From positions 86,117-150,116 of the forward strand of contig CAZSQN010000001.1 in NCBI GenBank assembly GCA_964609095.1: 64,000 nucleotides of DNA, read 5' to 3'. Positions 16,162-59,049 of the stretch are shown piece by piece. Position 1 is the stretch's first letter; each line of letters begins with the position of its first letter. The DNA is from an uncultured Gammaproteobacteria bacterium (GTDB lineage Bacteria > Patescibacteriota > Patescibacteriia > CAZSQN01). The notes under the pieces are model-generated. The model was not told the origin of the DNA. It did not search any database and saw only the letters and a program-made list of their open reading frames with translations. Made by a program: the position numbers and the translations under genes.

Positions 16162-16162
16162 G

Positions 16163-16222: not shown

Positions 16223-16288
16223 CCGTAGTGAAACGCAAAGCGTTCTACTACGGGGAGTCCCGCGCGCCCCGTACTGAATTTTGATTAG

Positions 16289-16372: not shown

Positions 16373-16474
16373 TTCGGTAAGTCCAAAAGCAAAATTAGTA
16401 CGGGGTAAATCTGCCTGCCTGTCCCGCACAAAGACGAGCTTTGTGCGGGGTTTCGCCATCCACCCTTTTCGCCG

Positions 16475-18377: not shown

Positions 18378-18540
18378 ACCCCGCACATAATTTGCTTAAC
18401 GCGGCACATAATTTATGTTATGCGCTGTGATAGTTAGACAAACTATATTTTATTATTCTTTTAAGATGTTCTGCCTCGCTTTTGAACTAATAAACGAAAA
18501 CATAAGCAAGTTATGTGCGGGGCATAATAATTACATCTTA

Positions 18541-21969: not shown

Positions 21970-22077
21970 AACACAGATACGAATAACATCCGAATGAGAT
22001 ACGAATGACGCGAATATTCGGATTATTTGGATGCATTCGTATATAATTCGTATTTCTGTTGTATTGTCGCAAAAATA

Positions 22078-23266: not shown

Positions 23267-23343
23267 AGGGTAAAGGGGACAGGGTATAGGGTATAGTTTT
23301 TAAAAACTATTTTCTAAACCCTAAACCCTAAACCCTAAACCCT

Positions 23344-24236: not shown

Positions 24237-24322
24237 GATTGACAAATTAAAAATGAGGGCATTAAGCCCTTGTTTTTATTTTGGTATAATTCTTAACAGC
24301 TAACAGCTAACAGCTAACAGCG

Positions 24323-25183
24323 ATGCCTCACATCCATGACAAAAAAGTAAAAGAATTGGAAGACAAAGCGAACAGGGTTCGCCAGCTTATTATTGAAAGC
24401 TTGGTGGAAGCCAAGAGCGGGCATTCTGCCGGACCTTTAGGCATGGCCGATATTTTTGCCGCGTTTTATTTTCATCTTCTCCATCACAAGCCAAAGAATC
24501 CCAATTGGGCGGACCGCGACCGGCTGATACTTTCTAACGGCCATATTTGTCCAGTGCGTTACGCAACTATGGCTTTGGCCGGATATTTTCCCATAAAAGA
24601 GCTAAAGACGCTGCGCAAATTCGGTACTCGCCTTCAGGGGCATCCGGAGCGTCTGCGCCTGCCGGGAGTAGAAACAACTTCCGGCCCTTTGGGCTCCGGG
24701 CTTGGACAAGCGGCCGGCCTTGCTTATGCCAGCCGGATGGATGGCAAAAAATGGCGGACATACTGCCTGATGAGCGACGCCGAACAAGCGGCCGGCGTGC
24801 ACTATGAAGCAATGCTTTTTGCCGGACGAAACAAATTATCAAATCTTACCGGCGTAATTGACAGGAACAATATCCAGATTGACGGCGTGACCGAAGATAT
24901 TATGCCCTTGGAGCCGCTGCGCGCCAAATATGAGGCCTGCAATTGGGCCGTGTTGGAAGTCGGCGGGCATAACATTGAACAGTTTGTGGACGCGGTTGAG
25001 GAGGCAAAATCCATTTATGAAAAACCGACGGTGATAATAGCGCACACCATTCCCGGACGAGGCGTTTCCTTTATGGAAAAAAAGTACGAATGGCACGGCA
25101 TTCCGCCCAAACCGGAAGAAGCGGAAATCGCGTTAAAAGAATTAAGAACATTGGGAGGAAAAATAAAAAGCGAACACGAATAA
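24323..25183 (+). CDS. transketolase, N-terminal (thiamine-diphosphate-binding) subunit
   Basis: Split-transketolase N-terminal subunit motifs (GHSAGPLGMADI, LSNGHICPVRYA, GSGLGQAAGLAYA). Confidence 0.85.
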   Translation: MPHIHDKKVKELEDKANRVRQLIIESLVEAKSGHSAGPLGMADIFAAFYFHLLHHKPKNPNWADRDRLILSNGHICPVRYATMALAGYFPIKELKTLRKFGTRLQGHPERLRLPGVETTSGPLGSGLGQAAGLAYASRMDGKKWRTYCLMSDAEQAAGVHYEAMLFAGRNKLSNLTGVIDRNNIQIDGVTEDIMPLEPLRAKYEACNWAVLEVGGHNIEQFVDAVEEAKSIYEKPTVIIAHTIPGRGVSFMEKKYEWHGIPPKPEEAEIALKELRTLGGKIKSEHE

Positions 25184-25191
25184 GCAGAGCT

Positions 25192-25902
25192 ATGCCGGTA
25201 TCAAAGTTTAGAATCTTAAGGTATTTGCTGATAATTGCCGCCTCCATGGCTGCGGCGCTTCTTTTTCCCGTTTTGGAAGAAACGGAATCCAATCCCGATC
25301 CGGCGCTTTGGATTCTGGCTATTTTAATCGCCTTTTTAATTGACAGAGCCATGGAGAGAAAAAGGGCTTTGATGGCCAGCGTGGAAATAGAGCTCTCACG
25401 GATGCGGCGTTTAAGCCATCTTGTTCATGGCCTGGGCGCTTCCCAATGGCGTGAAAAGTTAGAATCCTCCATTTCTTTTTATCATAAAAAAGTCGCGGCA
25501 GATTTTTTTGATTACAAAAACGCGTTAACTGATTTTAGGAAAATAACTCATTTAATTTATAAATTTGAACCGCAAAACGGCCGCGAGGAAATATTGTGGG
25601 AGGAGCTGCTGCAAACCACCCGCGATTTGGCGCTGGAGCGGCAGAATATAAAAGAACATCTTGCAAGGCGGCTTTCATGGTACAGCTGGCTTATCGTGGC
25701 AACCATTGCTTTTTTTGTCGCAATTTTGCTTCTTCTTGGCAGAAGCGATATTTTGGCGTCTCGTTTGACTGCCGGATTGGGCATAGGCAGTTTGCTTTTG
25801 GCTTTGGATCTGCTTGCCTTGGTTAATAAAACATCAAAGATAGAACTTCTGGAGCTTCAGAAGATGTATGAAGACAATCTTTCGTCAATGGAGAGAAAAT
25901 AA
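25192..25902 (+). CDS. hypothetical membrane protein
   Basis: 236 aa with 3-4 predicted TM helices. Start at MPVSKF; the ORF's upstream extension overlaps the tkt N-subunit gene. Confidence 0.5.
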   Translation: MPVSKFRILRYLLIIAASMAAALLFPVLEETESNPDPALWILAILIAFLIDRAMERKRALMASVEIELSRMRRLSHLVHGLGASQWREKLESSISFYHKKVAADFFDYKNALTDFRKITHLIYKFEPQNGREEILWEELLQTTRDLALERQNIKEHLARRLSWYSWLIVATIAFFVAILLLLGRSDILASRLTAGLGIGSLLLALDLLALVNKTSKIELLELQKMYEDNLSSMERK

Positions 25903-26010: not shown

Positions 26011-27039
26011 GTGGCATGGGGTATGACAGGCATCAATCCAAAAATGAAACTTGTTTCCAACTGGAATGATTTATCCAAATTGGAGCAGAAGCCGACGCGC
26101 GACGGCTATGGCGAAGGCGTGGTTATTGCCGGAGAAGCTGACAAAAATATTGTCGTGCTCTGCTGCGACCTCACGGAATCAACCCGCTCGCTCGCTTTTA
26201 AGAAAAAATTTCCGGAACGGTTTATTCAGTTGGGTGTCTCCGAACAATCAATGGTGGTGATTGCCGGCGGTTTGGCTTTGGCCGGCAAAGTGCCGTGGAT
26301 TTCTTCTTACACTATGTTCTGCCCGGGCCGCGCTTGGGAGCAGGTGCGCACCAATCTCGCCTTGAATGAGGTCAATGTTAAAATCGCCGGCGCGCACTCC
26401 GGTGTTTCTGTCGGGCCGGATGGCGCCACGCATCAGGCAATAGAAGATATTGCCATTATGCGTTGCATTCCAAAGATGACCGTGGTGGCTCCTTGCGATA
26501 TGATAGAAACGCGAAAAGCCGTTGTCGCCCTCTCTAAGGCGATTGGTCCGGCGCATATCCGTTTTGCGCGGGAGAAGACGCCGGTATTTACGAGCGAAGA
26601 AACGCCATTTATTCTTGGCAAAGCAGAAATTTTCCGCGACCCTTCGATAAACTCAGGGCGAGCGGCAGATGTGGCTATAATTGCTTGCGGGCCGCTCGTA
26701 CATAACGCGCTGCTGGCGGCGGAAGAATTATCCAAAAAGAAAATCCAGTGTATGGTGGTGAATAACCACACCATCAAGCCGATGGATGAGAAAACGATTA
26801 TTTCTGTTGCCAAGCGTTGCGGCGCGGTAGTTACGGTGGAAGAGCATCAGATAATGGGCGGCTTGGGAGGAGCCGTGGCGGAAGTATTGGCGAAAAATTA
26901 TCCCGTGCCAATGGAATTTGTCGGCGTGCAAGACAGATTTGGCGAATCAGGCAACCCCAATGAATTGATTGAGTATTTCGGCATGGGAGTTAGCTCCATA
27001 GTTGAAGCGGTAAAAAAAGTATTAAAACGGAAAAAATAA
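26011..27039 (+). CDS. transketolase, C-terminal (pyrimidine-binding) subunit
   Basis: Transketolase pyrimidine-binding and C-terminal domains (GVSEQSMVVIAGGLALAGKVPW, GPDGATHQAIEDIAIMR). Confidence 0.85.
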   Translation: MAWGMTGINPKMKLVSNWNDLSKLEQKPTRDGYGEGVVIAGEADKNIVVLCCDLTESTRSLAFKKKFPERFIQLGVSEQSMVVIAGGLALAGKVPWISSYTMFCPGRAWEQVRTNLALNEVNVKIAGAHSGVSVGPDGATHQAIEDIAIMRCIPKMTVVAPCDMIETRKAVVALSKAIGPAHIRFAREKTPVFTSEETPFILGKAEIFRDPSINSGRAADVAIIACGPLVHNALLAAEELSKKKIQCMVVNNHTIKPMDEKTIISVAKRCGAVVTVEEHQIMGGLGGAVAEVLAKNYPVPMEFVGVQDRFGESGNPNELIEYFGMGVSSIVEAVKKVLKRKK

Positions 27040-28900: not shown

Positions 28901-28966
28901 GGACTATGGTAAAGGGTATAGAAATTCACTAAACCCTAAACCCTAAACCCTAAACCCTAAACCCTA

Positions 28967-29935
28967 ATGTACGACATAATTACAATCGGCGCGGCAACCA
29001 AAGACGTTTTTTTGGAAAGCGGCAGTTTTAAATTTATCAAATCGCCGGAGTTTGCCGGAGGCACGGGCGAATGCCTTTCATTTGGTTCTAAAAATGAAGT
29101 CAGGAATATCTTTTTTTCAACCGGCGGCGGAGCCACTAATGCCGCCGTCACGTTTTCCCGCCTGGGCCTCTCTGTCGCGGCTCTTACCAGAGTGGGAAGA
29201 GATTCTTTCGGAGATGATATTATTGCCGCTTTAAAAAACGACAATGTTTCCGTAAAGCTGATTCAGCGCGATCCCGCGCTTAAAACCGCTTACTCAACCT
29301 TGCTTATGCAGGGGCCCGGCGAGAGAACGGTGCTTGTTTATCGCGGCTCGTCAGCAAAAATTAACGCGCGGGAGTTGCGGCAGGTGAGGACAAAGTGGAT
29401 TTACGTGACTTCTCTCGGAGGCCAGATTGATTTGCTTCGGAAAATATGGAGCTGGGCTCGTAAAAATAAAGTAAAAATCGCCTGGAATCCCGGAGGAGAA
29501 GAGCTAAAGTCGGGTTTGGAAAAACTTCTGCCTTTTATAAAACAGTGCGAAGTGTTCAATGTTAATCGCGAAGAAGCCGCTAGGGTTACCGGTTGCGGCT
29601 GGAGAGACAGGGAATGTTTGTTTGCCAATCTCTGCGGCAAGGCCACCTATGTTTTGATCACGGACGGAGAGCGCGGGGCGTATTGTTGCGGCGCCGGTGA
29701 GCGTTTTTTCGCTTCGTCGCTTGGCACCAAACCGAAAAATACGACAGGCGCCGGCGACGCCTTTGGCTCCGCCTTTGTGGCCGGCCTTATTTTAAGAAAC
29801 AGTGTTGATTTTGCTCTGCGGCTCGCCATTTTAAACGCCGACTCTGTTATCAGGCAGATGGGGGCTAAGACGGGAATTTTAAAAAAGTTGCCAAGCAAGG
29901 CAGTTTTATCTAAAATAGAAATAAAGAAACTGTAA
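28967..29935 (+). CDS. PfkB-family carbohydrate kinase (second copy)
   Basis: MYDIITIGAATKDVF N-terminus and TGAGDAFGSAF C-terminal motif. Confidence 0.75.
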   Translation: MYDIITIGAATKDVFLESGSFKFIKSPEFAGGTGECLSFGSKNEVRNIFFSTGGGATNAAVTFSRLGLSVAALTRVGRDSFGDDIIAALKNDNVSVKLIQRDPALKTAYSTLLMQGPGERTVLVYRGSSAKINARELRQVRTKWIYVTSLGGQIDLLRKIWSWARKNKVKIAWNPGGEELKSGLEKLLPFIKQCEVFNVNREEAARVTGCGWRDRECLFANLCGKATYVLITDGERGAYCCGAGERFFASSLGTKPKNTTGAGDAFGSAFVAGLILRNSVDFALRLAILNADSVIRQMGAKTGILKKLPSKAVLSKIEIKKL

Positions 29936-30921: not shown

Positions 30922-30996
30922 ACAATTAAAGCGTTTAGCGATTAGCGTATAGCGTTTAGTTTTTCTAAACCCTATACCCTAAAGTAGAAACTTGTT

Positions 30997-31464: not shown

Positions 31465-31497
31465 AAAATCAGAAATCCGAAGCACGAAATCCGAAAT

Positions 31498-32352: not shown

Positions 32353-32426
32353 GGGCCATTAGCTTAATGGCAGAGCACCCGGTTTGCATCCGGGAGATGA
32401 GAGTTCGATTCTCTCATGGTCCACCA
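32353..32426 (+). tRNA. tRNA-Ala (anticodon TGC), CCA encoded
   Basis: GGGCCATTAGCTTAATGGCAGAGCACCCGGTTTGCATCCGGGAGATGAGAGTTCGATTCTCTCATGGTCCACCA. Confidence 0.85.
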
Positions 32427-33920
32427 TTTCAGATTTGCCGAAGAAGTTGCCTCGGGGCTTCGCCCCTCGGCATTGGTTTCCGCCAAGAAATTCCAGGGGG
32501 TTTTGAATTCCGCCAAAAGAATTCCCGCCGCAAGTCGGCGGTTCGAGCCGATGGAAACAAGAAAATCTCTCATCAGTGAGGGATTTTCTTGTTTAGAGAG
32601 ATTTACGGCTTGGTTGGCTTCAATAATCCAGTTTCGCATGAGTTCGAGCCAATGATTACCTTTTCGCTCAAAATCAGATAATTTCTCCTCAATTGTTTTC
32701 TTTTCCGCCATTAAAACATTCTTTTTCTCTTGATACTCGGCAAGTTCCAACGCCTCGCCTAAATATGCGTCTGTCAGTCGCTCCAGTCGTATTTTAATGG
32801 CGGAAATACTATCGCGGAGATTTTGAGCGAAAAGGTCTGATGAGTGGCGGGATTCTTTGTTCTCATTTTCCAGTTTTGCCAAAAACTTTTCCCGCCACTC
32901 ATCGGGCAAAGAAACTTTTTGACAAAGATTTTTCACTTGTTCAGTTAGCACTTCTTCCCGCAAAAAGCGATTTTCAGTGCATTGAATAGTTTTGCTCTTG
33001 TGGGTGCAACGATAATAAATGAATTTCAAACCACTTTTCTTGATATGTCGCTCGGCGGTTATGGCGTAGCCACAAACCCCACAAGTAGCAAAACCTAAAA
33101 ACTGAAAATTCTTCGGTCCTCGCTTTTTGCGGGGTTTCCCATTCTGAACAAGCGCCTTTTGTATCTCGTCAAAAAGTTTCTTTGAAATCATTGGCTTATG
33201 CGAACCTTGATGCACCTCGCCACGATATTGAAAATGTCCGTAGTAAAAAGGATTTGTGAGTATGTGTTCAATACTGGCGAGGTGCAAAGGTTTGCCCGTC
33301 TTGCCAACCAAGCCAAGAGAAAACATTTTGCGCTGAATTGCCGTGAGCGTATATTGTCCCGTAGCAAAAGCCTCTAACGCTTCTTTTACTTTACCAAAGG
33401 TCTTTTTGTCTGGCTCAATCGTGCGAAGTCGTGGCTCGTTGAAATATCCGAGAGGGGCTTTTGCCGATAATTCACCACGCCTAATTTTTTGGCGAATACC
33501 ACGCAAAATGTTTTCTCTTAAATTGTCGGTGTAATACTTTGCTTGTCCGAAGGCGACACTCAACATAAATTTTCCTTGGGGTGTCGCCTCGAACCAGAAA
33601 GTAGGGAATTTTAGCGATTGGATTTTGAGTGTATCCACCAAGTAAATGACACGCCCGCCGTCAATCGAGTTACGAGCTAATCTATCGGGGTTCCACGCTA
33701 AAATTCCCTGTGCGGTGCCTTTTTCAATTTCGCCAAGCATTTCGTTAAAAATCTCTCGCCCTGGCTCTTTGGCGGTTTTTGATTCGTAGTATTCACGAGC
33801 AACGAAAAGAGAATTTTGCTTGGCGAAATCACGCAATTCTTGAAGTTGTGCCTCAATACTCAAAACTTGGCGTTCCTCATCCTCACTAGATTTACGACAA
33901 TAGATAAAGTATTTGATCAT
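32364..33920 (-). CDS. large serine recombinase (resolvase/invertase catalytic domain + recombinase domain + zinc ribbon)
   Basis: N-terminal serine-recombinase catalytic motif (YCRKSSEDEERQVLSIEAQ; catalytic Ser in RKSS). Central recombinase domain and Cys pairs (CGVCG...YYRCTH). ORF runs through repeat 'a' and terminates inside tRNA-Ala. Start MIKYF at 33920; the upstream TTG-initiated extension is encoded by repeat a'. Confidence 0.8.
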   Translation of the reverse strand: MIKYFIYCRKSSEDEERQVLSIEAQLQELRDFAKQNSLFVAREYYESKTAKEPGREIFNEMLGEIEKGTAQGILAWNPDRLARNSIDGGRVIYLVDTLKIQSLKFPTFWFEATPQGKFMLSVAFGQAKYYTDNLRENILRGIRQKIRRGELSAKAPLGYFNEPRLRTIEPDKKTFGKVKEALEAFATGQYTLTAIQRKMFSLGLVGKTGKPLHLASIEHILTNPFYYGHFQYRGEVHQGSHKPMISKKLFDEIQKALVQNGKPRKKRGPKNFQFLGFATCGVCGYAITAERHIKKSGLKFIYYRCTHKSKTIQCTENRFLREEVLTEQVKNLCQKVSLPDEWREKFLAKLENENKESRHSSDLFAQNLRDSISAIKIRLERLTDAYLGEALELAEYQEKKNVLMAEKKTIEEKLSDFERKGNHWLELMRNWIIEANQAVNLSKQENPSLMRDFLVSIGSNRRLAAGILLAEFKTPWNFLAETNAEGRSPEATSSANLKWWTMRESNSHLPDANRVLCH

Positions 33921-34409
33921 AGAATTGCGTGATTGAATTGCACCGCACTTACACCGACAATTTCTAAAATCTCTCATCGGCTCTTGCGCCTTTGGCGCAA
34001 TCCAAACTTTGTTTGGGAACCGCCGACTTTCGGCGGGAATGCTTTTGGCGGAATTCAAAACCCCCTGGAATTTCTTGGCGGAAACCAATGCCGAGGGGCG
34101 AAGCCCCGAGGCAACTTCTTCGGCAAATCTGAAATGGTGGTGTTTGTTTGAAAAAGTCAGAACCCATTTTGCGGAGAACCCTGAAAACTAATGCGGACTC
34201 GGCAGGGCGAAACATTTGACTGGGGATATGGATTCGCCCTGCCTCGGCTGATTTCCCGCCCGCAGGAGGGGTCTGGGGAGGAATGCGGGCGGGTTTCGGA
34301 CTGGGGGTTTTCGGAAAAAAATTCTCGGCTACAAAATTGATAAAAGTCCTCATATCTGTTAGTATAATACTACGAACGAAATCAAGCAACAGTTAAATGT
34401 TATCAATAT

Positions 34410-36245: not shown

Positions 36246-36542
36246 TAGCCGAGAATTTTTTTCCGAAAACCCCCAGTCCGAAACCCGCCCGCATTCCTCC
36301 CCAGACCCCTCCTGCGGGCGGGAAATCAGCCGAGGCAGGGCGAATCCATATCCCCAGTCAAATGTTTCGCCCTGCCGAGTCCGCATTAGTTTTCAGGGTT
36401 CTCCGCAAAATGGGTTCTGACTTTTTCAAACAAACACCACCAAATTGAATTAGTCGCCTCGCTCGGGGCTTCGCCGTTCTTGCGACAATTCAGAGATTGG
36501 CTGACAAGTTTGGCGTGTTAGTTGATGATCTAAAAAATTATT

Positions 36543-37750: not shown

Positions 37751-37840
37751 CAATATAAGACATACGGCAATAATCCACAAAAATAAATATCATCAAAACA
37801 AAAACCTCCCTATGGGGGTTTTTGTTTTTAATTATTTTCA

Positions 37841-38587: not shown

Positions 38588-38679
38588 CTTAGAGCTTGTG
38601 GCTCGTGGCTCGTGGCTCGTGGCTTGTGGCTTTTAGAAGTTTTAACTATAAGCTAAAAGCTAACAGCTAAAAGCTATTT

Positions 38680-39216: not shown

Positions 39217-39350
39217 GCGGCATTGCCAAGAGAAAGGTTTTTGTGCTAAAAGAGTAGCAGACATTTTTGTCTGTTTTTATTTTAGCGGTTAGCGGTCAGC
39301 GTCAAGCGTTCAGTAAATTTCTAAACGCTATACGCTATACGCTTGAGATT

Positions 39351-40455: not shown

Positions 40456-40638
40456 GAGCTTGACGATTCCGGTTCGTTGTGTTATAGTATAAATGCAATA
40501 AAGACCTGGGTTAAATACTCTGGTCTTTTTCATTTAATCAAATAAGAATATAATACGAATAATGGTTTTTATGCGAATTCGCGGATATGTGAATTTGCAT
40601 ATTCGCATCATTCGCAACTATTCGCAGATTCGTATCTT

Positions 40639-41913: not shown

Positions 41914-41977
41914 ATTCAGATTAAATTTTAGATTTCTGATTTAAGATTTGAAATCTGAGATTATAAATTTGAAATTC

Positions 41978-42700
41978 ATGAGCATTTACACGACAATTTT
42001 TTACCAGCCGATGTTTAACGCCCTGATCTGGTTTTATAATGTGGTCCCAGGGAAAGACATCGGTCTGGCGATTGTTCTTCTTACGGCGCTGCTTAAGATT
42101 TTGCTTTGGCCGTTTTCCATCCAATCTTTGAAATCGCAAAAGGCGATGACCGAGCTTCAGCCCAAGCTCAAGGAGCTTCAGGAAAAATATAAAGGGAAAA
42201 AAGAGGAGCTGGCCAAAGCCACGATGCTGCTTTATTCAAAAGAAAAGGTAAGCCCCTTTTCTTCCTGTCTGCCGCTTTTGGTTCAGCTTCCTTTTCTTAT
42301 AGCGCTCTATCAAGTGCTTCGCGACGGGCTGGCTTCAAAAAAGTTTGAACTGCTTTATTCTTTTATCAGCAATCCCGGGCAGGTTGACCCGACCTTTTTT
42401 GGGATCTTGAATTTGGCGGCCCCGAATTTTATTTTGGCGCTCTTAGCGGGAGGCGCTCAATTTTTGCAATCAAAAATGCTTTCCACCAGGCGCCCGCCGC
42501 GCTCCGTGGCCGGCAAAGAGGGAAGCAAGGACGAAGATACGATGGCGAGGATGAATAAGCAGATGACTTATATGATGCCGGCGATTACGGTTGTGATTTC
42601 CGCCGGGCTTCCGGCCGGACTCGCGCTTTACTGGCTTATTTCAAGTTTGCTCACCGTTGGCCAGCAGGCGCTCTTCTTAAGAACTCGCCATAAGCCGTAA
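41978..42700 (+). CDS. yidC: membrane protein insertase YidC/Oxa1 (short form)
   Basis: YidC core (LLKILLWPF, MTELQPKLKELQEKYK, MLLYSKEKVSPFSSCLPLLVQLPFLIALYQVL). Confidence 0.8.
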   Translation: MSIYTTIFYQPMFNALIWFYNVVPGKDIGLAIVLLTALLKILLWPFSIQSLKSQKAMTELQPKLKELQEKYKGKKEELAKATMLLYSKEKVSPFSSCLPLLVQLPFLIALYQVLRDGLASKKFELLYSFISNPGQVDPTFFGILNLAAPNFILALLAGGAQFLQSKMLSTRRPPRSVAGKEGSKDEDTMARMNKQMTYMMPAITVVISAGLPAGLALYWLISSLLTVGQQALFLRTRHKP

Positions 42701-42738
42701 GCCATAAGCATACAGCTTAAAGCTTACGGCAAAATATT

Positions 42739-45534: not shown

Positions 45535-45543
45535 TTAGAAGCG

Positions 45544-45585
45544 CCCCGTACAAGAGATAAGCTCTTGTGCGGGGTTTTTGTTTTG
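45544..45585 (+). terminator. rho-independent terminator
   Basis: ccccgtacaagag-ataa-gctcttgtgcgggg + TTTTTGTTTT. Confidence 0.7.
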
Positions 45586-45754
45586 ATAAATTTCCATCTT
45601 CAATTGCGCGCTAGGGGCTGTTGTATTATTAGCACTCTTACTTGACAAGTGCTAATGGCCTGTTGTAAGGTTTAAGCAAACAAATGGCTCAGAGCCATTT
45701 TTGTTACCTTAATTATTAAGAGCTGAAAGTTAAAAGCTGACAGCTAATTATTAT

Positions 45755-46042: not shown

Positions 46043-46106
46043 CCATAAGCCCTAAGCTATATGCCATAAGCATATAGCTTACAGCCTACGGCTTACAGCC
46101 AACACT

Positions 46107-47753: not shown

Positions 47754-47853
47754 TTTAGCTTATAGCTTTCAGCTGTTAGCTTTTAGAACAAAACACCTCC
47801 GACTTATCGGGGGTGTTTTTGGTTATGGGCGGGGTTTATGTTAAAATTAAAAT

Positions 47854-48777
47854 ATGAAAATTCTGATCAAACTGCTTGAGTCGTATGTTATCGTGCTGAT
47901 TTTGGCGTTATTTTCTGGGCTTGCGTTCCCCGATTTTGGTTTATATATAGCTCCGGCCAGCACTTTGTTTTTGCAAATCATCTTTTTTCTTTCTTCTCTT
48001 AAACTTGACGCCCGCGCTCTCGCGGTAGAGGCTAAAAGGAAAAGGACGATTGTCTTGGTAAACTTTTACATGCTTATCTTATTTCCCGCGACAGTTTTTT
48101 TGCTTGCTAAATTTTTGGCGCCCCAATACGCGCTTCCGCTCCTGCTTCTTGCGGCTATGCCTGCCGGAATGACTTCGCCGCTTCTCTCCGAGATAGTGGG
48201 AGGCTCGGTTGGGTTCGCGCTCGTTTTAACTATGACGACATCGCTTTTTTCCCCGATTACTATTCCTCTGATGATTAAATTGCTTGCCGGAGCAAGTGTC
48301 GTGGTGCCGATTATGGCGATGTTTAAATCTTTATTCTTTGTGATTGTCGTTCCGTTTGCTTTGGCACAGACCGTCAGGTTGTTTTTTCATGAAAAGATTA
48401 AAGCCACCTTTTTTACCTTTAAGCCGATTTCAATTCTGTTTCTCGGCTTGCTTATATTCGGCATTGTCGCGAAACAGGCGGGGGAGCTTCGCACGCATCT
48501 CGGTTTGTTTTTAGGAGCATTGACTGTTTTGTCAATCTTTTTCTTTCTTTTGCATTTGATCGGATATTGGGGCGTGCCGGGTTTGGCGCGCGCCGAACGT
48601 TTATCAGCAACAATCTGTCTTACTTATATGAACTTTACTCTGGCTATTTTTTTGGCAGGCAAATTTTTTCCACGGCCGGAAGTTCTTATTCCGGTTATTC
48701 TCTCCGTATTTCCTTGGAGCATCGGAATTATACCGTTTAAATTTTTGGCCAATCGCAGACAGAAAAATGGAACTTGA
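47854..48777 (+). CDS. polytopic membrane transporter (BASS/ACR3-like fold, putative)
   Basis: 307 aa with about 9-10 TM helices. Weak resemblance to the bile-acid:sodium symporter superfamily. Confidence 0.4.
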   Translation: MKILIKLLESYVIVLILALFSGLAFPDFGLYIAPASTLFLQIIFFLSSLKLDARALAVEAKRKRTIVLVNFYMLILFPATVFLLAKFLAPQYALPLLLLAAMPAGMTSPLLSEIVGGSVGFALVLTMTTSLFSPITIPLMIKLLAGASVVVPIMAMFKSLFFVIVVPFALAQTVRLFFHEKIKATFFTFKPISILFLGLLIFGIVAKQAGELRTHLGLFLGALTVLSIFFFLLHLIGYWGVPGLARAERLSATICLTYMNFTLAIFLAGKFFPRPEVLIPVILSVFPWSIGIIPFKFLANRRQKNGT

Positions 48778-48965
48778 AACATGGAACATGAAACACTCCC
48801 GCGTTGGGAGTGTTTTAAAGTTGAAAAGGATTTGTAAAAAAAGAGTTTACAACAAAAATAAGCGACCGCTTCAAATTGTTGTAAAATGCGAGATTTTAAT
48901 TTTTGGCCAGCCGTCGCTGCGTACAACCGCTTGCGAAAAGTGAAAATTTTTGGTATAATATAAAC

Positions 48966-49337: not shown

Positions 49338-49446
49338 ACATAATGCGAATTTCGCGAATGAACGCGAATGCCGCAAATATGCAAATACGGTATTCGCACA
49401 TTCGTAGATTGGCATAAAATTCATATTATTCGCGTTATATTTTTTT

Positions 49447-50551: not shown

Positions 50552-50783
50552 CCAATCCCGAATACCGAAAAAATAACTAATACCCAATAAATATCTAATG
50601 TCTAATTGCTCTAGATAAAGATTAAAGATATAAATCCGAATATCGAAATTCGAAACTCGAAACAATGCTCAAAATCATAATTTTCAAATTCTCAAAACGT
50701 TTTGAACATTTGAACTTTAGATATTTGAATTTGTTTCGGATTTCGGGCTTCGGATTTCGAGTTTTAATTCTTTAAAGTGCGGT

Positions 50784-51374
50784 ATGTTAAAAAATGCTGA
50801 TATCGCTAAAGCAATTTTAATTTTGAGAAAAGGCGGTGTAGTTGCCATTCCCACCGAAACCGCTTATGGACTGGCGGCGGATTCAATGAACCCAAGCGCG
50901 GTTAAAAAGATTTTTTTGATAAAAGGACGTTCTAAAACAAAACCTTTGCCGCTTATCGCCGCCTCGCTTAAAATGGTTAAAAAGTTTTTTTATTTATCCA
51001 AAATTGAAGAAAAATTGGCGCGCGATTTTTGGCCCGGGCCTCTGACCATGCTCTTAAAATCCAAAAGGAAATTTCCTCCGGCGTTAATTCGCGGCAAAAA
51101 GAAAATTGCCGTCAGGGTTTCTTCCTCGCCAGTGGCGGCAGAAATATCCGCGCGTTTGGGACGGCCGATTACTTCCACCTCGGCCAATTTATCCGGCCGC
51201 AATGAGCTTTACAGCGCGGCGGCTGTAGCGGCTGAATTTAAGAATAAAAAGGCAAAACCTGATATGATATTGGATGGCGGCAGATTGCCGCGGAGGAAAC
51301 CGTCCACAATTATAGAATTTCAAAATGGCAGAATAATTATCTTAAGAAAAGGTCAAATAAAATTTAGGAATTAG
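50784..51374 (+). CDS. tsaC: L-threonylcarbamoyladenylate synthase (YrdC/TsaC type)
   Basis: YrdC fold motifs (GGVVAIPTETAYGLAAD; SANLSGR). Confidence 0.8.
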   Translation: MLKNADIAKAILILRKGGVVAIPTETAYGLAADSMNPSAVKKIFLIKGRSKTKPLPLIAASLKMVKKFFYLSKIEEKLARDFWPGPLTMLLKSKRKFPPALIRGKKKIAVRVSSSPVAAEISARLGRPITSTSANLSGRNELYSAAAVAAEFKNKKAKPDMILDGGRLPRRKPSTIIEFQNGRIIILRKGQIKFRN

Positions 51375-51401
51375 AAATTTGAAATTGGAAATTTTCGTGT
51401 T

Positions 51402-53986: not shown

Positions 53987-54133
53987 ATTCTGCAAAGCAA
54001 AACTTTGGTGGACAAGTAACGTTCTTTGAATTTTCGTGCCCTTCCGGCAAATGTCGGAAGGGTTTTATATTTAACACTCATCTTTTTGTCTTGTTGTTAA
54101 ACATATATGTAATACACCGCCGTCTATTTAAAG

Positions 54134-54313: not shown

Positions 54314-54336
54314 AACTTTCTTTAAAACTCTTAAAG

Positions 54337-54370
54337 TCCCTATTACTTGCTATAGCAAGTAATAGGGACT
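54337..54370. promoter_or_regulatory. perfect 34-bp palindrome (GTCCCTATTACTTGCTA|TAGCAAGTAATAGGGAC), putative operator
   Basis: Exact dyad. The same core (ATTACTTGCTATAGCAAGTAAT) recurs at 55061-55082 on the other side of the PaaX-like gene. Confidence 0.55.
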
Positions 54371-54422: not shown

Positions 54423-54971
54423 ATGACCAAGAAAGGCGAAATCGCATTTAAGATTTTGGCGGCGGTAGGTTTGGCAGGGGTGGTATGCGCGGCAGTTGTC
54501 GCGCCAAATGTTTTCCAATTTCTGCCAAATCCGTACAAAAGAAAATACCCTAAAAGATCTTTAGATAAAGCTCTTCAACGATTGAAAGATCGCGGACTGT
54601 TGAAATTCGCCGCCGGTTCTAATGGCTGGAGAGTTGAACTTACGGAAAAAGGCCGTGAAGAACTTTTTGCGTATGAGACGTGTGAAAAAATGTTTAAGAA
54701 GCCCAAACGATGGGATGGCAAATGGCGGCTTCTCGTGTTTGATATTGAGGAGAAAAGAAAAAGCATCAGAGAAATGGTGCGACAAACACTTGTGCGGCTG
54801 GGATTTTATCGTTTGCAGGATAGCGTTTGGGCACATCCTTATGAATGCGAGGATGTGTTGGAACTTTTGCGCGCTAAATACCGCGTTCGCCATGAGGCGT
54901 TGTATTTACGCGCGGAGTATTTGGCTAAAGATCATTGGCTGCGTAAGCACTTTAATCTTCCTTTAGATTAA
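54423..54971 (+). CDS. PaaX-like transcriptional regulator (short form; N-terminal wHTH, C-terminal WDGKW...LGF...SVW domain)
   Basis: C-terminal block WDGKWRLLVFDIEEKRKSIREMVRQTLVRLGFYRLQDSVWAHP matches my recollection of the PaaX_C signature; it also resembles the Cas2/VapD sequence pattern (similarity noted, fold relationship uncertain). N-terminal LKDRGLLKFAAGSNGWRVELTEKGREEL is wHTH-like. Confidence 0.5.
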   Translation: MTKKGEIAFKILAAVGLAGVVCAAVVAPNVFQFLPNPYKRKYPKRSLDKALQRLKDRGLLKFAAGSNGWRVELTEKGREELFAYETCEKMFKKPKRWDGKWRLLVFDIEEKRKSIREMVRQTLVRLGFYRLQDSVWAHPYECEDVLELLRAKYRVRHEALYLRAEYLAKDHWLRKHFNLPLD

Positions 54972-55060
54972 ATTCGTTTATTTCGTGCAGCTTGCTGCGC
55001 GGAGGTTCATTGCGTTTGAATTAAAAATAATTTTGGAAGGAAAAGATTGTTTGTCCCCCA

Positions 55061-55082
55061 TTACTTGCTATAGCAAGTAATA
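55061..55082. promoter_or_regulatory. second copy of palindromic core ATTACTTGCTATAGCAAGTAAT
   Basis: 22-bp perfect dyad identical to the centre of 54337-54370. Confidence 0.55.
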
Positions 55083-55214
55083 GGAGTATTGGGAATGAAG
55101 TTAATTCTATAAGAAGCGCGGCAATTTTTGATGTTATATAGAAATGATCATGAGGTTAATTTTTTTGATTGTGTTTTAATTGCAAATGAGATAGATTATT
55201 TAATGAATATGTCC

Positions 55215-55988
55215 ATGATTAAAACAGCCGAAGAAATAGAGATAATGCGCCAAGGGGGCGCTATTTTGTCGCGTGTTTTGGGTGAAGTTGTCGCTCGCAT
55301 CGTGCCTGGAGCGATAACATTGGAACTGGACGAATTGGCAGAGCGTAGAATGCGCGAGGCCGGCGGCGAGCCGTCGTTTAAGGGATATAAGACGCGCGGA
55401 GCCAAGACGGCGTTTCCTTCTTCTCTTTGCATATCTATAAATGACGAGGTGGTGCATGCGCCGGCAACTCCGAGCCGCGCGCTTAAAGAAGGTGACATAA
55501 CCGGATTGGATATCGGCGTTCGTTATAAAGGGTATTGCACGGACATGGCCGTAACTATTGGCGTTGGCAAAGTTTCCCGCGAAGCAAAGAGATTAATGTC
55601 CGTGACCCGCGACTCGCTTATGCGCGGGGTCTCCGCGGTCAAGCCGGGGAATTTCGTTTCCGATATCGGCAAAGCCGTGCAGGGCTATGCAGAAAAAAAT
55701 GGATTTTCCATTGTCAGGGATTTGGTCGGGCATGGCGTAGGAAAGGGAGTTCACGAAGAGCCAAAGGTGCCGAATTATTTTGACGAGGATTTGCCGCCGG
55801 TTGAACTTAAACCGGGACTGGTTATTGCCATTGAACCGATGGTGAATGTTGGAGATTGCGAAGTGAGGACTCTTGGCGACGGCTGGACGATAGTCACATC
55901 CGACTGCTCGCTTTCGGCGCATTTTGAAATGACGGTGGCGGTGACAGATATTGGGTATGAGATTTTAACGCCACTACCAAGGTTATAG
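55215..55988 (+). CDS. map: methionine aminopeptidase, type I
   Basis: MIKTAEEIEIMRQGGAIL; metal ligands in the DIGVRYKGYCTDMA, HGVG and EPM motifs. Alternative starts at 55203/55209. Confidence 0.85.
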   Translation: MIKTAEEIEIMRQGGAILSRVLGEVVARIVPGAITLELDELAERRMREAGGEPSFKGYKTRGAKTAFPSSLCISINDEVVHAPATPSRALKEGDITGLDIGVRYKGYCTDMAVTIGVGKVSREAKRLMSVTRDSLMRGVSAVKPGNFVSDIGKAVQGYAEKNGFSIVRDLVGHGVGKGVHEEPKVPNYFDEDLPPVELKPGLVIAIEPMVNVGDCEVRTLGDGWTIVTSDCSLSAHFEMTVAVTDIGYEILTPLPRL

Positions 55989-56033
55989 GGTTTAGGGTAA
56001 ATCTAAACGCTATACGCTAACCGCTAAACGCTT

Positions 56034-56432
56034 ATGAAGTATCTAGGAATTGACCATGGCGGAAAAAGAATAGGTTTAGCCATTGGCGATGACGAAACGC
56101 GCGTCGCCAGCCCGTTAGAAGTGGTTGAAGCGGATTCTAACGAGGAGGCCGTTGCCGCAATTGGTTTGATTATAAAAGAAGAAGGAATTGATAAAATAAT
56201 TTTGGGTCTGCCTCTATCCCTCAAAGGAGAAGAAGGAGCGCAGGCGGCTCGCGTGCGCGAGTTTGGAAACGGATTGAGCAAGCTGTCCAAGATTGACGTT
56301 ATCTATGAGGACGAACGGCTTTCTTCCAAAATGGCAGACGCGCTCCTAAAAGAAGCGTTGCCGGAGAAGCGGGACGCCGTGGCGGCGATGGTGATACTGC
56401 AATCTTATTTAGATAAATTGCGTAAAGTATAA
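56034..56432 (+). CDS. ruvX: Holliday junction resolvase RuvX (YqgF)
   Basis: MKYLGIDHGGKRIGLAIGD...GLPL is RNase H-like YqgF. Confidence 0.8.
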   Translation: MKYLGIDHGGKRIGLAIGDDETRVASPLEVVEADSNEEAVAAIGLIIKEEGIDKIILGLPLSLKGEEGAQAARVREFGNGLSKLSKIDVIYEDERLSSKMADALLKEALPEKRDAVAAMVILQSYLDKLRKV

Positions 56433-56491
56433 AACATGAAACCTGAAACATGATTTGTGTTCTATGTTTCATGCTTCATGCCGTGTGAAAT

Positions 56492-57625: not shown

Positions 57626-59017
57626 ATGATTAAAACCAGAACAACCGTGTTAGACGCCGTTTCGCGCGTCGGCGAAGAAATATTGCTCAAAGGATGGGTG
57701 CGCGGCAGGCGAGATATGGGCAAGATTATTTTTATTGATTTGCGCGACCGAAGCGGAATTATGCAAGTGATTTGCGCCGCGCCGGAGGTTGTGGCGACGG
57801 CAAACCAGCTTAGAAGCGAATACGCGGTTGCCATCCGCGGTTTGGTTAAAGAGCGCAGCGCGAAGCAAATAAACGAAAAATTGCCATCCGGCCGGGTGGA
57901 AGTTGAAGCTCTGGAAGTCATCATAATCAATCCCGCAAAAACGCCTCCTTTTGAATTGGACAAAGACACTCGTTTTGTAAATGAGGAAACCAGATTAAGA
58001 TACCGTTATCTTGATTTGAGAAGTGAAAGAATGTTAAAAAATCTGGAATTGCGGCACAGAGTAATTAAATTTTTCCGCGATTTCTTGTCGGACAGAGGAT
58101 TTTTGGAAGTGGAGACCCCGATTTTAACCAAGGGCACGCCGGAGGGGGCGCGCGAATTTATTGTTCCCTCGCGGCTTCATGCGGGCAAGGCCTATGTTTT
58201 GCCGCAATCGCCCCAGCAGTTTAAGCAGCTTCTGATGGTCGCCGGCGTTGAAAAATATTTTCAGGTGGCCAAGGCCTTCCGGGACGAGGACCAGCGCGGA
58301 GACCGCCAGCCGGAGTTTACCCAACTTGATATTGAAATGAGTTTTGTGGAGCAGGAAGATATTTTAAAATTGGGCGAAGAGATGATGAACGCGCTCATTG
58401 ACGCGCTAAACGATGCGGGCGGTGGCTATCGCGTTTCCAAAAATCCGTGGCCGCGCCTTACTTATGCCGAGGCGATGGAAAAATATAAAACCGACAAGCC
58501 GGATTTGCGGGAAGATAAAAATAATCCAAAAGAGCTTGCTTTCGCCTGGGTGGTTGATTTTCCAATGTATGAGCAAGACGCCGAAGGGGCGCTGGCCGCC
58601 GCGCACCATCCTTTTACCAGGCCGCATTCGGAAGACGAGCATTTATTGGAATTGGATCCGTTAAAAGTAAGAGCGCGGTCGTATGATATTGTTTTGAACG
58701 GATATGAAATTTCGTCGGGGTCCATCCGCATCCATGAGCGCGAACTGCAGAACAGGATATTTAAAATTTTAGGGCTCTCGCAGGAAGAAATTAACGCTAA
58801 ATTCGGCCATATGCTGGAAGCGTTTGAATACGGCGCTCCGCCGCACGGCGGATTTGCTCCCGGGTTGGACAGGTTAGTGATGATTTTGGCGGACGAGCCC
58901 AATATCCGCGAAGTTATGGCCTTTCCCAAAACCGGCGACGCGCGCGACCCGATGATGGGCTCTCCCTCTCTAATCGGCGCGAAACAAATGAAAGACGCGC
59001 ATATAAAATGGACTTAA
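57626..59017 (+). CDS. aspS: aspartyl-tRNA synthetase (compact archaeal/CPR-type)
   Basis: N-terminal OB anticodon-binding domain. Class II motifs (FRDEDQRGDRQPEFTQLDIEMSF; GGFAPGLDRLVMIL). Confidence 0.85.
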   Translation: MIKTRTTVLDAVSRVGEEILLKGWVRGRRDMGKIIFIDLRDRSGIMQVICAAPEVVATANQLRSEYAVAIRGLVKERSAKQINEKLPSGRVEVEALEVIIINPAKTPPFELDKDTRFVNEETRLRYRYLDLRSERMLKNLELRHRVIKFFRDFLSDRGFLEVETPILTKGTPEGAREFIVPSRLHAGKAYVLPQSPQQFKQLLMVAGVEKYFQVAKAFRDEDQRGDRQPEFTQLDIEMSFVEQEDILKLGEEMMNALIDALNDAGGGYRVSKNPWPRLTYAEAMEKYKTDKPDLREDKNNPKELAFAWVVDFPMYEQDAEGALAAAHHPFTRPHSEDEHLLELDPLKVRARSYDIVLNGYEISSGSIRIHERELQNRIFKILGLSQEEINAKFGHMLEAFEYGAPPHGGFAPGLDRLVMILADEPNIREVMAFPKTGDARDPMMGSPSLIGAKQMKDAHIKWT

Positions 59018-59049
59018 ATTTTTAACTTTTAACTTTTAATTTAAATTGT

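Follow-up and report, generated by a model that had tools for sequence, protein, structure and literature searches.

In the 64-kb stretch analysed here (contig CAZSQN010000001.1, positions 86,117 to 150,116; hereafter the window), which comes from a groundwater bacterium of the Patescibacteria (Candidate Phyla Radiation, CPR) near Candidatus Uhrbacteria, tandem arrays of 7-nt units occupy many of the spacers between genes. On balance, the arrays are best read as heptanucleotide repeat elements resembling the short tandemly repeated repetitive (STRR) sequences, with the behaviour of REPINs, the hairpin doublets of repetitive extragenic palindromic (REP) elements: they would be copied to gene boundaries and grow by slippage in steps of 7 nt. 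Relative to close relatives the elements are recent, lineage-specific insertions. Their sites are the exact interval between a stop and a start codon, the part of a leader that separates the -10 box from the ATG, or, in frame, protein loops and termini that tolerate them. The same modules are found at different loci and in different species, about 60% of the elements consist of two imperfect complementary arms that can fold on either strand, and the elements are not intrinsic terminators of this genome. Among them is the element flagged in the first-pass annotation, a ladder hairpin of ~140 nt in the spacer between prfB and tsaC (50625-50768).

The gene content of the window is housekeeping: rpiB, rpe, a split transketolase, fba, nusA, yidC, groES/EL, tsaC, ksgA, map, ruvX, recO, ileS, ruvA, femAB and prfB (with its +1 frameshift site). 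Tandem Repeats Finder (TRF) was run on it at a permissive score (≥30), with 20 Markov-2 shuffles as background. The search returned 61 rows, 32 of them with period 7 against a shuffle mean of 1.85, and other periods were near background. A strict filter (at least three copies and at least three different bases) retained 25 rows, corresponding to 24 distinct arrays and a density of 3.9 arrays per 10 kb, as compared with 0.37 per 10 kb in 160 control loci (2.2 Mb in total, centred on GroEL genes, from many phyla). In the base-identity profile, intergenic DNA peaked at lag 7 (0.319) and lag 14 (0.293), with neighbouring lags at 0.26-0.29, and coding DNA was flat, the lag-7 signal being limited to intergenic DNA. 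The TRF counts place the arrays well above shuffled expectation, and an array of the described kind was present at every position at which the first-pass annotation had reported one. Over all arrays covered, five Logan assemblies that derive from separate runs were 100% identical to one another and to NCBI's GCA_016181485.1, so the arrays are not an assembly artefact. Nor are they restricted to the window: they extend into the next 10 kb and occur on all contigs of the relatives described below.

Some 32% of the spacers are occupied (13/30 at 25-120 nt, 5/13 at 121-300 nt, 2/6 above 300 nt and 1/16 below 25 nt); the earlier statement that the arrays fill most intergenic regions thus stands for many spacers but not for most. 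They are mainly, although not exclusively, intergenic, with 18 of the 24 in spacers and the others in frame in femAB (three arrays) or at gene termini, one of which runs into the 3′ end of yidC. At least eight distinct unit families occur in the window. The unit is typically built of three T/A positions and a 4-nt core containing G or C (TTTAGCG, TTTAGGG, TTTAGCT, TTTCATG, TTTCGGA, CTTGATT), and in a related family a linker is added to a 7-nt core, ATTCGCA. For this GCGAAT/ATTCGC type, the strict period of 7 that had been assigned to it must be given up, since its 7-nt cores are joined by linkers of 1-4 nt and follow one another at 8-11 nt. The distinction from CRISPR was upheld: the units are 7 nt long and arranged head to tail, not repeats of 25-50 nt with unique spacers of similar size.

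Seven syntenic contigs of Uhrbacteria-like relatives (L166, L168, L169, L170, L171, L172 and L173) were located in a large protein database via FemAB (62-71% identity) and GroEL (91-94%); GroEL scans of GTDB genome contigs and Joint Genome Institute (JGI) metagenome contigs gave nothing above 69% identity. Despite the synteny, the relatives are well diverged from the window, the third-position identity of groEL being 0.48-0.65. Period-7 rows per 10 kb numbered 5.2 in L172, 5.0 in the window, 4.5 in L170, 3.8 in L166, 3.6 in L169, 2.9 in L171, 2.1 in L173 and 0.9 in L168.

Orthologous stop-to-start junctions were compared between 36 and 57 kb. At 12 of these 14 the spacer is minimal in one or more genomes (0-9 nt, or genes overlapping by the 4 nt ATGA), and another genome has a heptad or ladder element of 27-232 nt. 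The groES-groEL spacer of the window (46043-46106, +) is filled by 64 nt of AGC type, namely nine nnnnAGC-type heptads with an 11-bp central palindrome (z -5.9/-7.4); the same junction holds a 97-nt GCGAAT ladder in L170 and a 73-nt AGCGTTC/CTAAACG module (module A, see below) in L172, and measures 4 nt in both L171 and L173. Between prfB and tsaC, 232 nt in the window correspond to 6 nt in L170, L171 and L172 and to 53 nt in L173. The map-ruvX spacer (45 nt, module A) is replaced by an ATGA overlap in L171 and L173 and by 33 nt of non-heptad sequence in L172, and the ruvX-recO spacer (59 nt, CATGTTT module) by an ATGA overlap in L171 and L172 and by 43 nt of CTTGTCG heptads in L173; L170 has no data for these two comparisons. 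The rpiB-rpe junction is 4 nt long in L169; the window has a 77-nt hairpin of CCCTAAA type there, and L166 one of CATGTTT type. Between tktN and tktC, L169 reads GAATAA-T-ATG, and in L166 a 74-nt hairpin lies exactly between the TAA and the ATG. When the tktN leader was followed from TGGTATAAT to the start codon, 10 nt were found in L169, (TAACAGC)x4 in the window and a heptad hairpin of ~130 nt in L166. In the ileS leader, the conserved promoter is followed by 9 nt in L169; L166 has an ATCCGCA/GCGGAT ladder there and the window an ATTCGCA/GCGAAT ladder, and between these two genomes both arms are altered in concert. One junction is therefore filled by different heptad families in different genomes. 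According to the base-level comparison, a short ancestral spacer is replaced at the filled sites, and the empty sites (TAA-ATAT-ATG or ATGA overlaps) contain no seed for the inserted unit.

Near-identical copies were found at separate loci of the window. Positions 30929-30959 recur in inverted orientation at 56033-56003 (31 nt, one mismatch), which confirmed the proposal that 55985-56035 is roughly the reverse complement of 30930-30985. Likewise, 38653-38677 matches the reverse complement of 47762-47786 (25 nt, one mismatch), and 42701-42730 matches 46063-46092 (30 nt, three mismatches). The copies keep the order of their variant units, and only 2-4 copies per family are visible in the 64 kb. 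Module A, of ~60 nt (AGCGTTT AGCGrTT AGCGTAT AGCGTTT AG - loop - CTAAACC CTATACC), aligns over ~55 columns across two window loci and a different junction of L166 (positions 189-263 of that contig), with 27-29 nt identical. Since such identity persists although synonymous sites are near saturation, it points to ongoing copying or constraint, as in REP families. A common vocabulary (TTTAGCG, TTTAGGG/CCCTAAA, AGCTAAA, CATGTTT, AATCAAG, TTTCGGA and the GCGAAT ladder) recurs across loci and genomes, and members of the CATGTTT module family also occupy further junctions of L172 and L166, as well as sites outside the window.

A reverse-complement partner (at least 10 of 12 bases matched, no more than 100 nt away) was detected for 15 of the 24 arrays, with 1.6 expected from shuffled flanks. 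When fold significance was determined with 200 dinucleotide shuffles per element on both strands, paired elements gave z values of -4.4 to -7.4 on both strands and none of the 200 shuffles was as stable; the earlier description of the arrays as often paired in imperfect hairpins was thereby substantiated. The predicted folds are ladders of 4-6 bp helices with small symmetric internal loops every 7 nt, and an occasional 7-nt bulge where one arm exceeds the other by one unit. In the prfB-tsaC element, the 5′ arm (AAATCCG AATATCG AAATTCG AAACTCG AAAC) is followed by an inner palindrome and a 3′ arm (GTTTCGG ATTTCGG GCTTCGG ATTTCGA GTTTT). As had been claimed for 50635-50765, this is a long hairpin: positions 50628-50768 fold at -39.3 kcal/mol (z -5.3, 0/200 shuffles as good), and the opposite strand folds equally well (z -5.05). 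Among 25 elements the antisense strand was the more stable in 16 (p=0.54), and because fold stability has no strand preference the palindromy is a property at the DNA level. A strand test at the RNA level, based on G.U versus C.A mismatches, revealed no consistent difference between sense and antisense, a result that neither supports nor excludes an RNA function. Four or more G3 tracts on one strand were observed at 23267-23296 (+), 23314-23344 (-) and 28929-28967 (-), as well as in modules of L170 and L166. These tracts are confined to the AGGGTAT/TTTAGGG family and the other families have none; oligonucleotide sequences bearing on the question of G-quadruplexes are (GGGTTTA)4 and AGGGTATAGGGG...

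Three arrays lie in frame in femAB (12930-13931, minus strand), which was aligned with 14 homologs. The perfect (AATCAAG)x4.3 array at 13111-13140 (-) is an insertion of seven residues (21 nt, three units) relative to most homologs (alignment columns 312-318), and (AATCAAG)x3.6 at 13693-13717 (-) is translated as IKNQESRI, within a loop of variable length that follows the RGP motif. At 13590-13623 (-), the sense units GCTAAAA GCTATAA GCTATAA GCTAAAA GCTAAA encode LKAISYKLKAK. Each relative has its own 7-residue direct repeat at this site (LKAISYK, LQATSHK, LYPMPYT, ILNSKFQ, FRISDFG, NLKSKIL), and at the DNA level the repeat is (AGCTAAA)x5 in L166, perfect (TTTCGGA)x4.7 in L168 and (TACAAGC)x4 in L169; as the units differ among these three genomes, different heptad arrays hold one femAB site at equal length. 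Inspection of the sequences showed that variant units in the coding arrays put TAA out of frame. The array at 42680-42738 (+; GCCATAA GCCGTAA GCCATAA GCATACA GCTTAAA GCTTACG GC) begins within the 3′ end of yidC and provides its stop codon, so that its GCCATAA/GCCGTAA units encode the C-terminus ...RTRHKP* where relatives end in ...FFRKK*; the spacer after yidC is 4 nt in L171 and L172. The RuvX terminus of L173 consists of AGGGACA/AGAAACA units, which are identical to units within the femAB of L169, both genomes being from the same sample. Several features of the arrays point to local gain and loss of units: 7 of the 24 are perfect, one unit occurs in the window in three copy numbers (3.3, 4.4 and 5.6), and the stop codon often lies inside the first unit (TAGAAAT TTGAAAT TGGAAAT; TGAGGAA TAAGGAA; TAGGGTT TAGGGT). 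The number of variable columns within arrays (30, with 31.2 expected) gave no significant sign of restriction.

In 25 filled co-directional spacers of the clade, the G content was 0.234 in the first 21 nt after the stop codon versus 0.135 in the last 21 nt before the ATG. This G depletion before the ATG is significant (Wilcoxon p=0.008), and C shows the reverse trend. The families have a fixed orientation to transcription, the minus-strand ileS leader included: a TTTAG(G/C)G arm comes first and the CTAAAC(C/G) arm lies by the ATG, GCGAAT precedes ATTCGC, and AAACATG precedes CATGTTT. The orientation would most simply reflect a filter for an unstructured, G-poor initiation region. Shine-Dalgarno (SD) motifs were found before only ~7 of 48 genes. 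A TATAAT box lies no more than ~10 nt from the start codon in several genes (e.g. 38330, 48978, 45193 and 24323). To judge from the sequence, this suggests widespread leaderless or SD-independent initiation in the clade. A role of the arrays as SD substitutes was rejected, given that SD motifs are rare everywhere in the genome and their absence beside arrays is accordingly a property of the genome.

Between 37.5 and 57.4 kb, 49 terminator-like sites were detected, and no array coincides with any of them. Those of canonical form include 37795-37828, 39256-39275, 45543-45575 and 54038-54063, and in three spacers a canonical terminator stands directly beside an array (39256-39275, ~47795-47826 and ~48795-48820). 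The elements themselves have neither a G+C-rich stem nor a T-tract, and in this respect they are unlike typical terminators, as the first-pass annotation had held. The Rfam scan of the window recovered RNase P RNA, tmRNA and six tRNAs, and no Rfam family reached the gathering threshold on any array of the window. Ladder hairpins are present in the 5′ regions of ileS, nusA and prfB, in agreement with the earlier reading; a T-box or other riboswitch in these leaders was rejected, there being no Rfam match and the leaders being missing in relatives. A HutP-like (NAG-N4)n reading of the families that contain TAG was likewise discarded, other families being without AG.

The remaining features of the elements in the window are as follows. 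The rpiB-rpe spacer (23267-23343, +) consists entirely of heptads up to the ATG (AGGGTAA AGGGGAC AGGGTAT AGGGTAT - loop - (CTAAACC)x4.4), and its hairpin (23264-23346, z -4.4/-4.9) contains a bulge of 7 nt, that is, of one unit. In the fba-ribokinase spacer (28901-28966, +), a short GGTAAAGGGTATAG arm is followed by a perfect (CTAAACC)x5.6 array reaching the ATG, of the same family as 23314-23344 with another copy number. Module A occupies a convergent spacer at 30922-30983 (AGCGTTT AGCGATT AGCGTAT AGCGTTT AG - TTTTT - CTAAACC CTATACC; z -4.6/-5.6). Its inverted copy in the map-ruvX spacer (55989-56033, +) comprises GGTTTAGGGTAAAT and CTAAACG CTATACG CTAACCG CTAAACG CTT, directly followed by the ATG. 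A module-A-like hairpin upstream of the hyp138 gene (39275-39350, +; TTAGCGG TTAGCGG TCAGCGT CAAGCGT - loop - CTAAACG CTATACG CTATACG) begins directly after the terminator-like hairpin at 39256-39275. The hyp85-methyltransferase spacer (38588-38679, +; z -3.2 on the sense strand) combines a (GTGGCTC)x5.4 arm with a CTATAAG CTAAAAG CTAACAG CTAAAAG arm; this junction is 19 nt in L171 and holds a GGAATTA-type module in L170. A degenerate AGATTTn/AAATCTn heptad hairpin lies between nusA and yidC (41914-41977, +), where L171 has 9 nt and L170 an AGGGTAT/CCTAAAT module. Around groES/EL, the groES leader (45722-45754, +) is AGCTGAA AGTTAAA AGCTGAC AGCTAAT up to the ATG, and the array right after the groEL stop (47754-47790, +) is TTTAGCT TATAGCT TTCAGCT GTTAGCT TTTAG. 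A GAAACAT/GGAACAT array (48762-48795, +) spans the end of the SBF transporter gene and is followed by a separate canonical terminator.

The ruvX-recO spacer contains a CATGTTT-type hairpin (56433-56491, +; AACATGA AACCTGA AACATGA - loop - ATGTTTC ATGCTTC ATGCC), and a direct (TTTTAAC)x2.9 array fills the spacer between the aspS/asnS-like gene and tRNA_edit (59014-59049, +). Between tsaC and the major facilitator superfamily (MFS) gene (51364-51401, +) lies TAGAAAT TTGAAAT TGGAAAT TTT, with the stop codon within the first unit; the orthologous array of L171 is about one unit shorter, L172 has a CATGTTT module at this junction and L170 has 1 nt. An array of the TCCGAAA family (31466-31497; AAATCAG AAATCCG AAGCACG AAATCCG) separates two minus-strand genes. 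The ladders of the three leaders extend over 21973-22065 for ileS (-; CGAAT.../ATTCG... cores at 9-11 nt, to the ATG at ~21972), 40545-40638 for nusA (+; GCGAAT/ATTCGCA cores at 8-10 nt; missing in L170 and L171) and 49338-49446 for prfB (+; GCGAAT/ATTCGC cores at 8-11 nt; a similar ladder in L170 and 1-10 nt in L171-L173). In the ruvA leader (15949-16035, -), AGCTAAA-type heptads flank a G+C hairpin, and 17 nt are common to the orthologous array of L169. In the 5′ leader of tktN, a perfect (TAACAGC)x4 array (24294-24321, +) fills the distance from the TGGTATAAT -10 box to the ATG; a partner arm is lacking, and the array is unstructured (z -0.8). The transketolase itself is split in the window into tktN (24323-25183) and tktC (26011-27039), with a gene for a Bestrophin-like membrane protein between them (25090-25902), and the two halves are adjacent in L169 (1-nt spacer) and L166. 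Just 3′ of the RNase P RNA lies CTAAACC CCAAACC CTAAACC (1584-1606, +). The RNase P RNA match (1080-1546, +) measures 467 nt against a model of 367 positions, which implies sizeable insertions. For the sugar transferase downstream, the start given by the longest ORF (1508) overlaps with this match and is probably a wrong call.

For the reading as STRR-like elements with REPIN-like behaviour, the following course is proposed. Hairpin modules would be copied to new sites in the manner of REPINs or miniature inverted-repeat transposable elements (MITEs), by some activity, after which strand slippage would lengthen and shorten them on the spot, 7 nt at a time, as the anatomy of the arrays suggests. 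Slippage may be aided by periodic arms that pair in shifted registers, and also by the size of the 7-nt loops, which would exceed the repair range of MutS; MutS repairs loops only up to about 4 nt. Within genes, only frame-preserving and stop-free versions would survive. The elements may persist because the clade rarely uses SD motifs and has many near-leaderless genes, so that spacers carry little information and insertions are tolerated; the visible filter would be orientation, with the G-poor, A/C-rich arm nearly always facing the downstream ATG. The elements would thus be near-neutral, with a probably small net effect on the cell: genes that once overlapped lose their coupling, and the RNA between cistrons gains hairpins by which upstream mRNA may be stabilised.

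Several observations weigh against this reading. At the six junctions compared base by base, no target-site duplication and no terminal inverted repeats were found at the ends of the elements. No Y1 transposase or REP-associated tyrosine transposase (RAYT), insertion sequence or reverse transcriptase (RT) was found in scans of the 64-kb window and of ~150 kb of relatives' contigs, apart from an RT in L173; Y1_Tnp in particular had no match among the scanned open reading frames (ORFs) of the window or in the precomputed Pfam annotation of the relatives' contigs, the rest of each genome lying outside the scan. No copy-number polymorphism was seen among 5-7 consensus assemblies of the same strain (NCBI and five Logan among them, probably one population), so that slippage is at most suggested as an ongoing process; such a strain-level comparison is uninformative, because all assemblies with the exact GroES or Metallophos protein are 100% identical. 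Adjacent variable positions within units are mildly enriched (7/11, with ~3 expected), a hint of a constrained core. Unpaired direct arrays such as (TAACAGC)x4 do not resemble transposed modules; module conservation, orthologous retention (ruvA leader, tsaC-MFS, femAB) and fixed orientation could equally reflect function; and the reading gives no reason for a unit of 7 nt. As to candidate mobilisers, the L173 gene (861-1772, just upstream of groES, in this one relative only) encodes a generic, DRT-like RT of 303 aa and was rejected for having no tie to the arrays, and the serine recombinase of the window (32364-34088) was rejected as part of a separate element flanked by an inverted repeat.

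Selection for function offers a different account, in which the elements would act in cis as RNA, whether as ribosome standby sites or unstructured leaders on which SD-independent initiation takes place, as hairpins between cistrons that respond to temperature or are processed, or as mRNA stabilisers. Arrays abutting the ATG with their G-poor arm proximal (p=0.008), a 3′ arm often longer than the 5′ arm, which leaves free A/C-rich units before the ATG, the fixed orientation of families, and modules conserved beyond synonymous-site levels would all fit, as would the orthologous retention of the ruvA leader and tsaC-MFS arrays, the phage fragment L182, in which similar arrays and SD-like 9-mer arrays stand just upstream of ORFs, and the translational role proposed for TAACTGA repeats (PMC4679880). 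We hold this account possible though unlikely, since groEL, tsaC, ruvX, recO, tktC, rpe and ileS have no element, or one of an unrelated family, in sister genomes, folding shows no preference for the sense strand (16/25 more stable antisense), and elements are found, too, in spacers of convergent genes, between stop codons and the real terminators that follow, and within coding regions. Satellites arising purely by slippage in place, with local 7-nt seeds duplicated, similar words convergent and partner arms made by quasi-palindrome template switching, are an unlikely explanation. It is true that stop codons often fall in the first unit, that arrays are perfect or differ in unit number, that many families share a TTTAG/CTAAA core and lie one mutation apart, that the same heptads occur in unrelated viral contigs, and that heptamers are the most over-represented long simple sequence repeats (SSRs) in many bacteria, for which polymerase slippage was proposed (Mrazek 2007, as reported in PMC4679880 and PMC4692102). 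Yet variant units follow one another in the same order over 25-31 nt, with similar loops and partner arms over ~55 nt, at three loci in two species, the empty sites offer no seed for the inserted unit, and identical AGGGACA/AGAAACA arrays sit in two different genes of one genome. The suggestion of slippage-generated satellites in the first-pass annotation is thus borne out in part, by the perfect arrays, the unit-number differences, the 21-nt in-frame insertion and the one-unit difference between orthologues; slippage alone is insufficient, because whole modules with the same variant-unit order recur across loci and species.

It appears very unlikely that the arrays bind a protein which reads nucleic acid seven nucleotides at a time, either cold-shock-domain (CSD) or OB-fold proteins binding cooperatively to single strands, as suggested for TAACTGA repeats, or a DNA regulator comparable to ToxR. 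ToxR and its TTTTGAT heptads are a precedent for a DNA-binding regulator. A strict 7-nt register across many sequence families, the design of three A/T positions with a 4-nt core, the clustering of variable positions and the precedent of one cold-shock protein (CSP) per heptamer cited in PMC4679880 could be understood in this way, but more than eight different cores and variants with periods of 8-11 exist, the elements are present or absent at housekeeping genes, and arrays lie within coding sequence. Scarcely credible is the lineage-specific terminator grammar that had been put forward earlier: many elements do follow stop codons directly and form stable hairpins, but they have no G+C-rich stem or T-tract, canonical terminators are separate and never coincide with arrays, relatives have no elements at the same junctions, elements are found in 5′ leaders and between genes that overlap (and are co-transcribed) in relatives, and unpaired arrays are unstructured.

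Over-represented intergenic heptamers have been noted since 1990 (STRR, in heterocystous cyanobacteria) and in a genome survey of 2007, their origin and function being left unexplained as far as PMC4679880 and PMC4692102 relate. According to the same two sources, the over-representation of heptanucleotides in intergenic DNA of many bacteria, with patchy phylogeny, and the slippage idea go back to Mrazek et al. 2007; these papers of 2015 state that no detailed study of heptanucleotide repeats exists. The arrays described here share with STRR and other heptameric long SSRs the tandem 7-nt units, the several families in both orientations, the intergenic and patchy occurrence and the lack of an explained function, with a few to about six copies per array. 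Tandem 7-nt repeats stand far above chance, except for the GCGAAT ladders (8-11 nt), they are predominantly intergenic (lag-7 signal in intergenic DNA only; 18/24 in spacers), and several families are shared (at least eight in the window, with the same vocabulary in L166 and L168-L173). STRR heptanucleotide unit sequences are reportedly to be found in Mazel et al. 1990. Unlike STRR, the present elements occur in a small patescibacterial genome, their units are imperfect, with a core and variable positions, most arrays are paired as hairpins, orthologous stop/start junctions are filled or empty, and in-frame coding copies exist. Contingency and regulatory heptanucleotide loci are exemplified by TTTTGAT at ctxAB of Vibrio cholerae and the 7-bp repeats of Haemophilus influenzae hmw. 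Those too are tandem 7-bp units near gene starts, which can vary in number by slippage, but they are single loci with a regulator or a phase-variable phenotype, whereas the present arrays occupy many loci at housekeeping genes with no length variation among assemblies.

The GGGAATC repeats of Xanthomonas, often in convergent inverted pairs at the same genes and extensively variable in length and sequence in related species, and the GGGGAYT repeats of Nostoc, which belong to the same class (Rehm et al. 2015, PMC4692102), resemble the AGGGTAT/TTTAGGG arms as intergenic heptamers with G3 tracts (four tracts, in three genomes) and convergent stem-loop pairs; one dominant unit per genome is reported in those studies, whereas here G tracts mark one of at least eight families. 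Geobacter has GGGACCG x4 elements (PMC2700814). In SD-poor marine Beggiatoaceae, cyanobacteria and Bacteroidetes, TAACTGA repeats, missing from related strains, directly precede start codons (MacGregor 2015, PMC4679880). Like the arrays of the window, these have units with stop codons, are mixed with other heptamers in Microcystis, and leave shorter spacers in relatives without repeats; they differ in having one dominant unit and almost exclusively direct repeats (1 indirect in 170 sets), as opposed to many units and 15/24 paired arrays here. In REPINs, REP elements are mobilised by RAYT transposases (Bertels & Rainey 2011, PMC3116915). The likeness extends to short extragenic inverted doublets, in REPINs the replicative unit, that form hairpins in ssDNA or RNA (here 15/24 with a partner, z -4.4 to -7.4), to several families that are conserved while their locations differ, to singlet remnants, and to dispersed near-identical copies (31 nt with one, 25 nt with one and 30 nt with three mismatches). 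REPs have no internal tandem period, whereas arm length varies here by whole units, and no GTAG-like 5′ tetranucleotide is present. The contrast with REP sequences and bacterial interspersed mosaic elements (BIMEs) drawn in the first-pass annotation therefore holds for the period-7 substructure, not for the behaviour, which is REPIN-like. The target-site duplications and terminal inverted repeats of MITEs are absent at the six junctions compared, and the elements have no G+C stem and T tract of rho-independent terminators. No paper describing such arrays in CPR/Patescibacteria was found in the literature.

Outside the clade, the same grammar was found sporadically in control loci, namely in a CPR genome (L007), in Vicinamibacterales (Acidobacteria, L056), and in L013 and L112. 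In L056 (7036-7067, 13811-13845 and 17525-17613), GGGATTA/CCCTAAT and GGTAGCT/GCTACCA occur in both orientations, and L007 (88-163, 9930-9990 and 13164-13240) has AAGTCAA/ACTTTTG hairpins at two loci and GTCTTTA/TAAAGAC in its groES-groEL spacer. A phage fragment from IMG/VR (L182, with a tail protein and a DNA ligase) carries several heptad arrays upstream of ORFs (CTAAACG-CTATACG-CTATACG twice, (ACGCTAA)x4 and ATAGCTG arrays) that are identical to words of the clade. It also contains SD-like tandem 9-mers immediately upstream of ORFs, (AAAGGTGTG)x7.6 and (TGAAAGGTG)x5.6, at 7716-7783 and 12808-12857. Other viral matches are single arrays (perfect, three units) in unrelated G+C backgrounds, and most 17-mer matches trace to one unrelated phage coding sequence. 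As the collection must hold many heptad arrays, only L182 is suggestive of a host-phage connection.

Further sequence features of the window were noted. A perfect 197-nt inverted repeat (34135-34331 / 36246-36442) encloses a segment of ~1.9 kb with a small ORF of helix-turn-helix (HTH) type and three ORFs without Pfam matches, and adjoins the serine recombinase and a tRNA (32353-32423); it looks like an invertible or integrated mobile segment. The NCBI contig break falls exactly at this repeat: L081 starts at window position 36348, and its first 95 nt also match 34229-34135 in inverted orientation. A perfect palindrome of ~30 nt (…CCCTATTACTTGCTATAGCAAGTAATAGGG…) at 54335-54370 and 55055-55090 flanks the gene of a PaaX-like regulator (54423-54971) and may be an operator or terminator pair. 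A second, non-heptad family of G+C-rich hairpins with CCCCG(T/C)AC…GT(A/G)CGGGG stems (16040-16460, 18520-18535 and 45543-45575; ~11030-11075 in L166) clusters between tRNA genes and at terminator positions. In ileS (18541-21972, -), the catalytic domain is parted into two halves by a histidine-phosphatase domain (PF00300 His_Phos_1, residues ~547-703), and this insertion in isoleucyl-tRNA synthetase is conserved in L166 (3549-6998) and L169 (3692-7141).

A bolder idea, which we regard as quite unlikely, is that the arrays were left behind by a dedicated heptad-writing activity that is largely independent of sequence. The enzyme might, for example, make 7-nt staggered cuts with fill-ins, or copy a 7-nt template, at gene boundaries or hairpins, although this is a doubtful proposal. 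It might, at similarly long odds, be encoded by the host or a mobile partner and act also on phage DNA replicating in these cells. If true, it would explain why a 7-nt unit is shared, with differing sequences, by cyanobacteria, Xanthomonas, Beggiatoaceae, L056, L007, L112 and phage L182, why, in femAB, heptads are swapped at equal length at a single in-frame site, and why no long SSRs are more over-represented in bacteria than heptamers.

The heptamer class itself is known; what is new is the resolution of filled and empty sites at single junctions, the swapping of families at one site, the in-frame copies and the hairpin vocabulary of several families. With tiny genomes and minimal spacers, the clade provides a clean natural experiment in which sister junctions are empty, filled, or filled by another family, with the further advantages of in-frame copies and several independent metagenomic assemblies. 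In the comparison, the repeats are shown to act as invasive DNA prone to turnover, splitting genes that used to overlap. The result has a bearing on the way in which non-coding DNA is acquired by streamlined CPR genomes, and also on annotation, the starts and ends of genes being called wrongly where arrays are present. Should some specific activity lie behind the 7-nt unit, it would be a new mutational or mobile mechanism.

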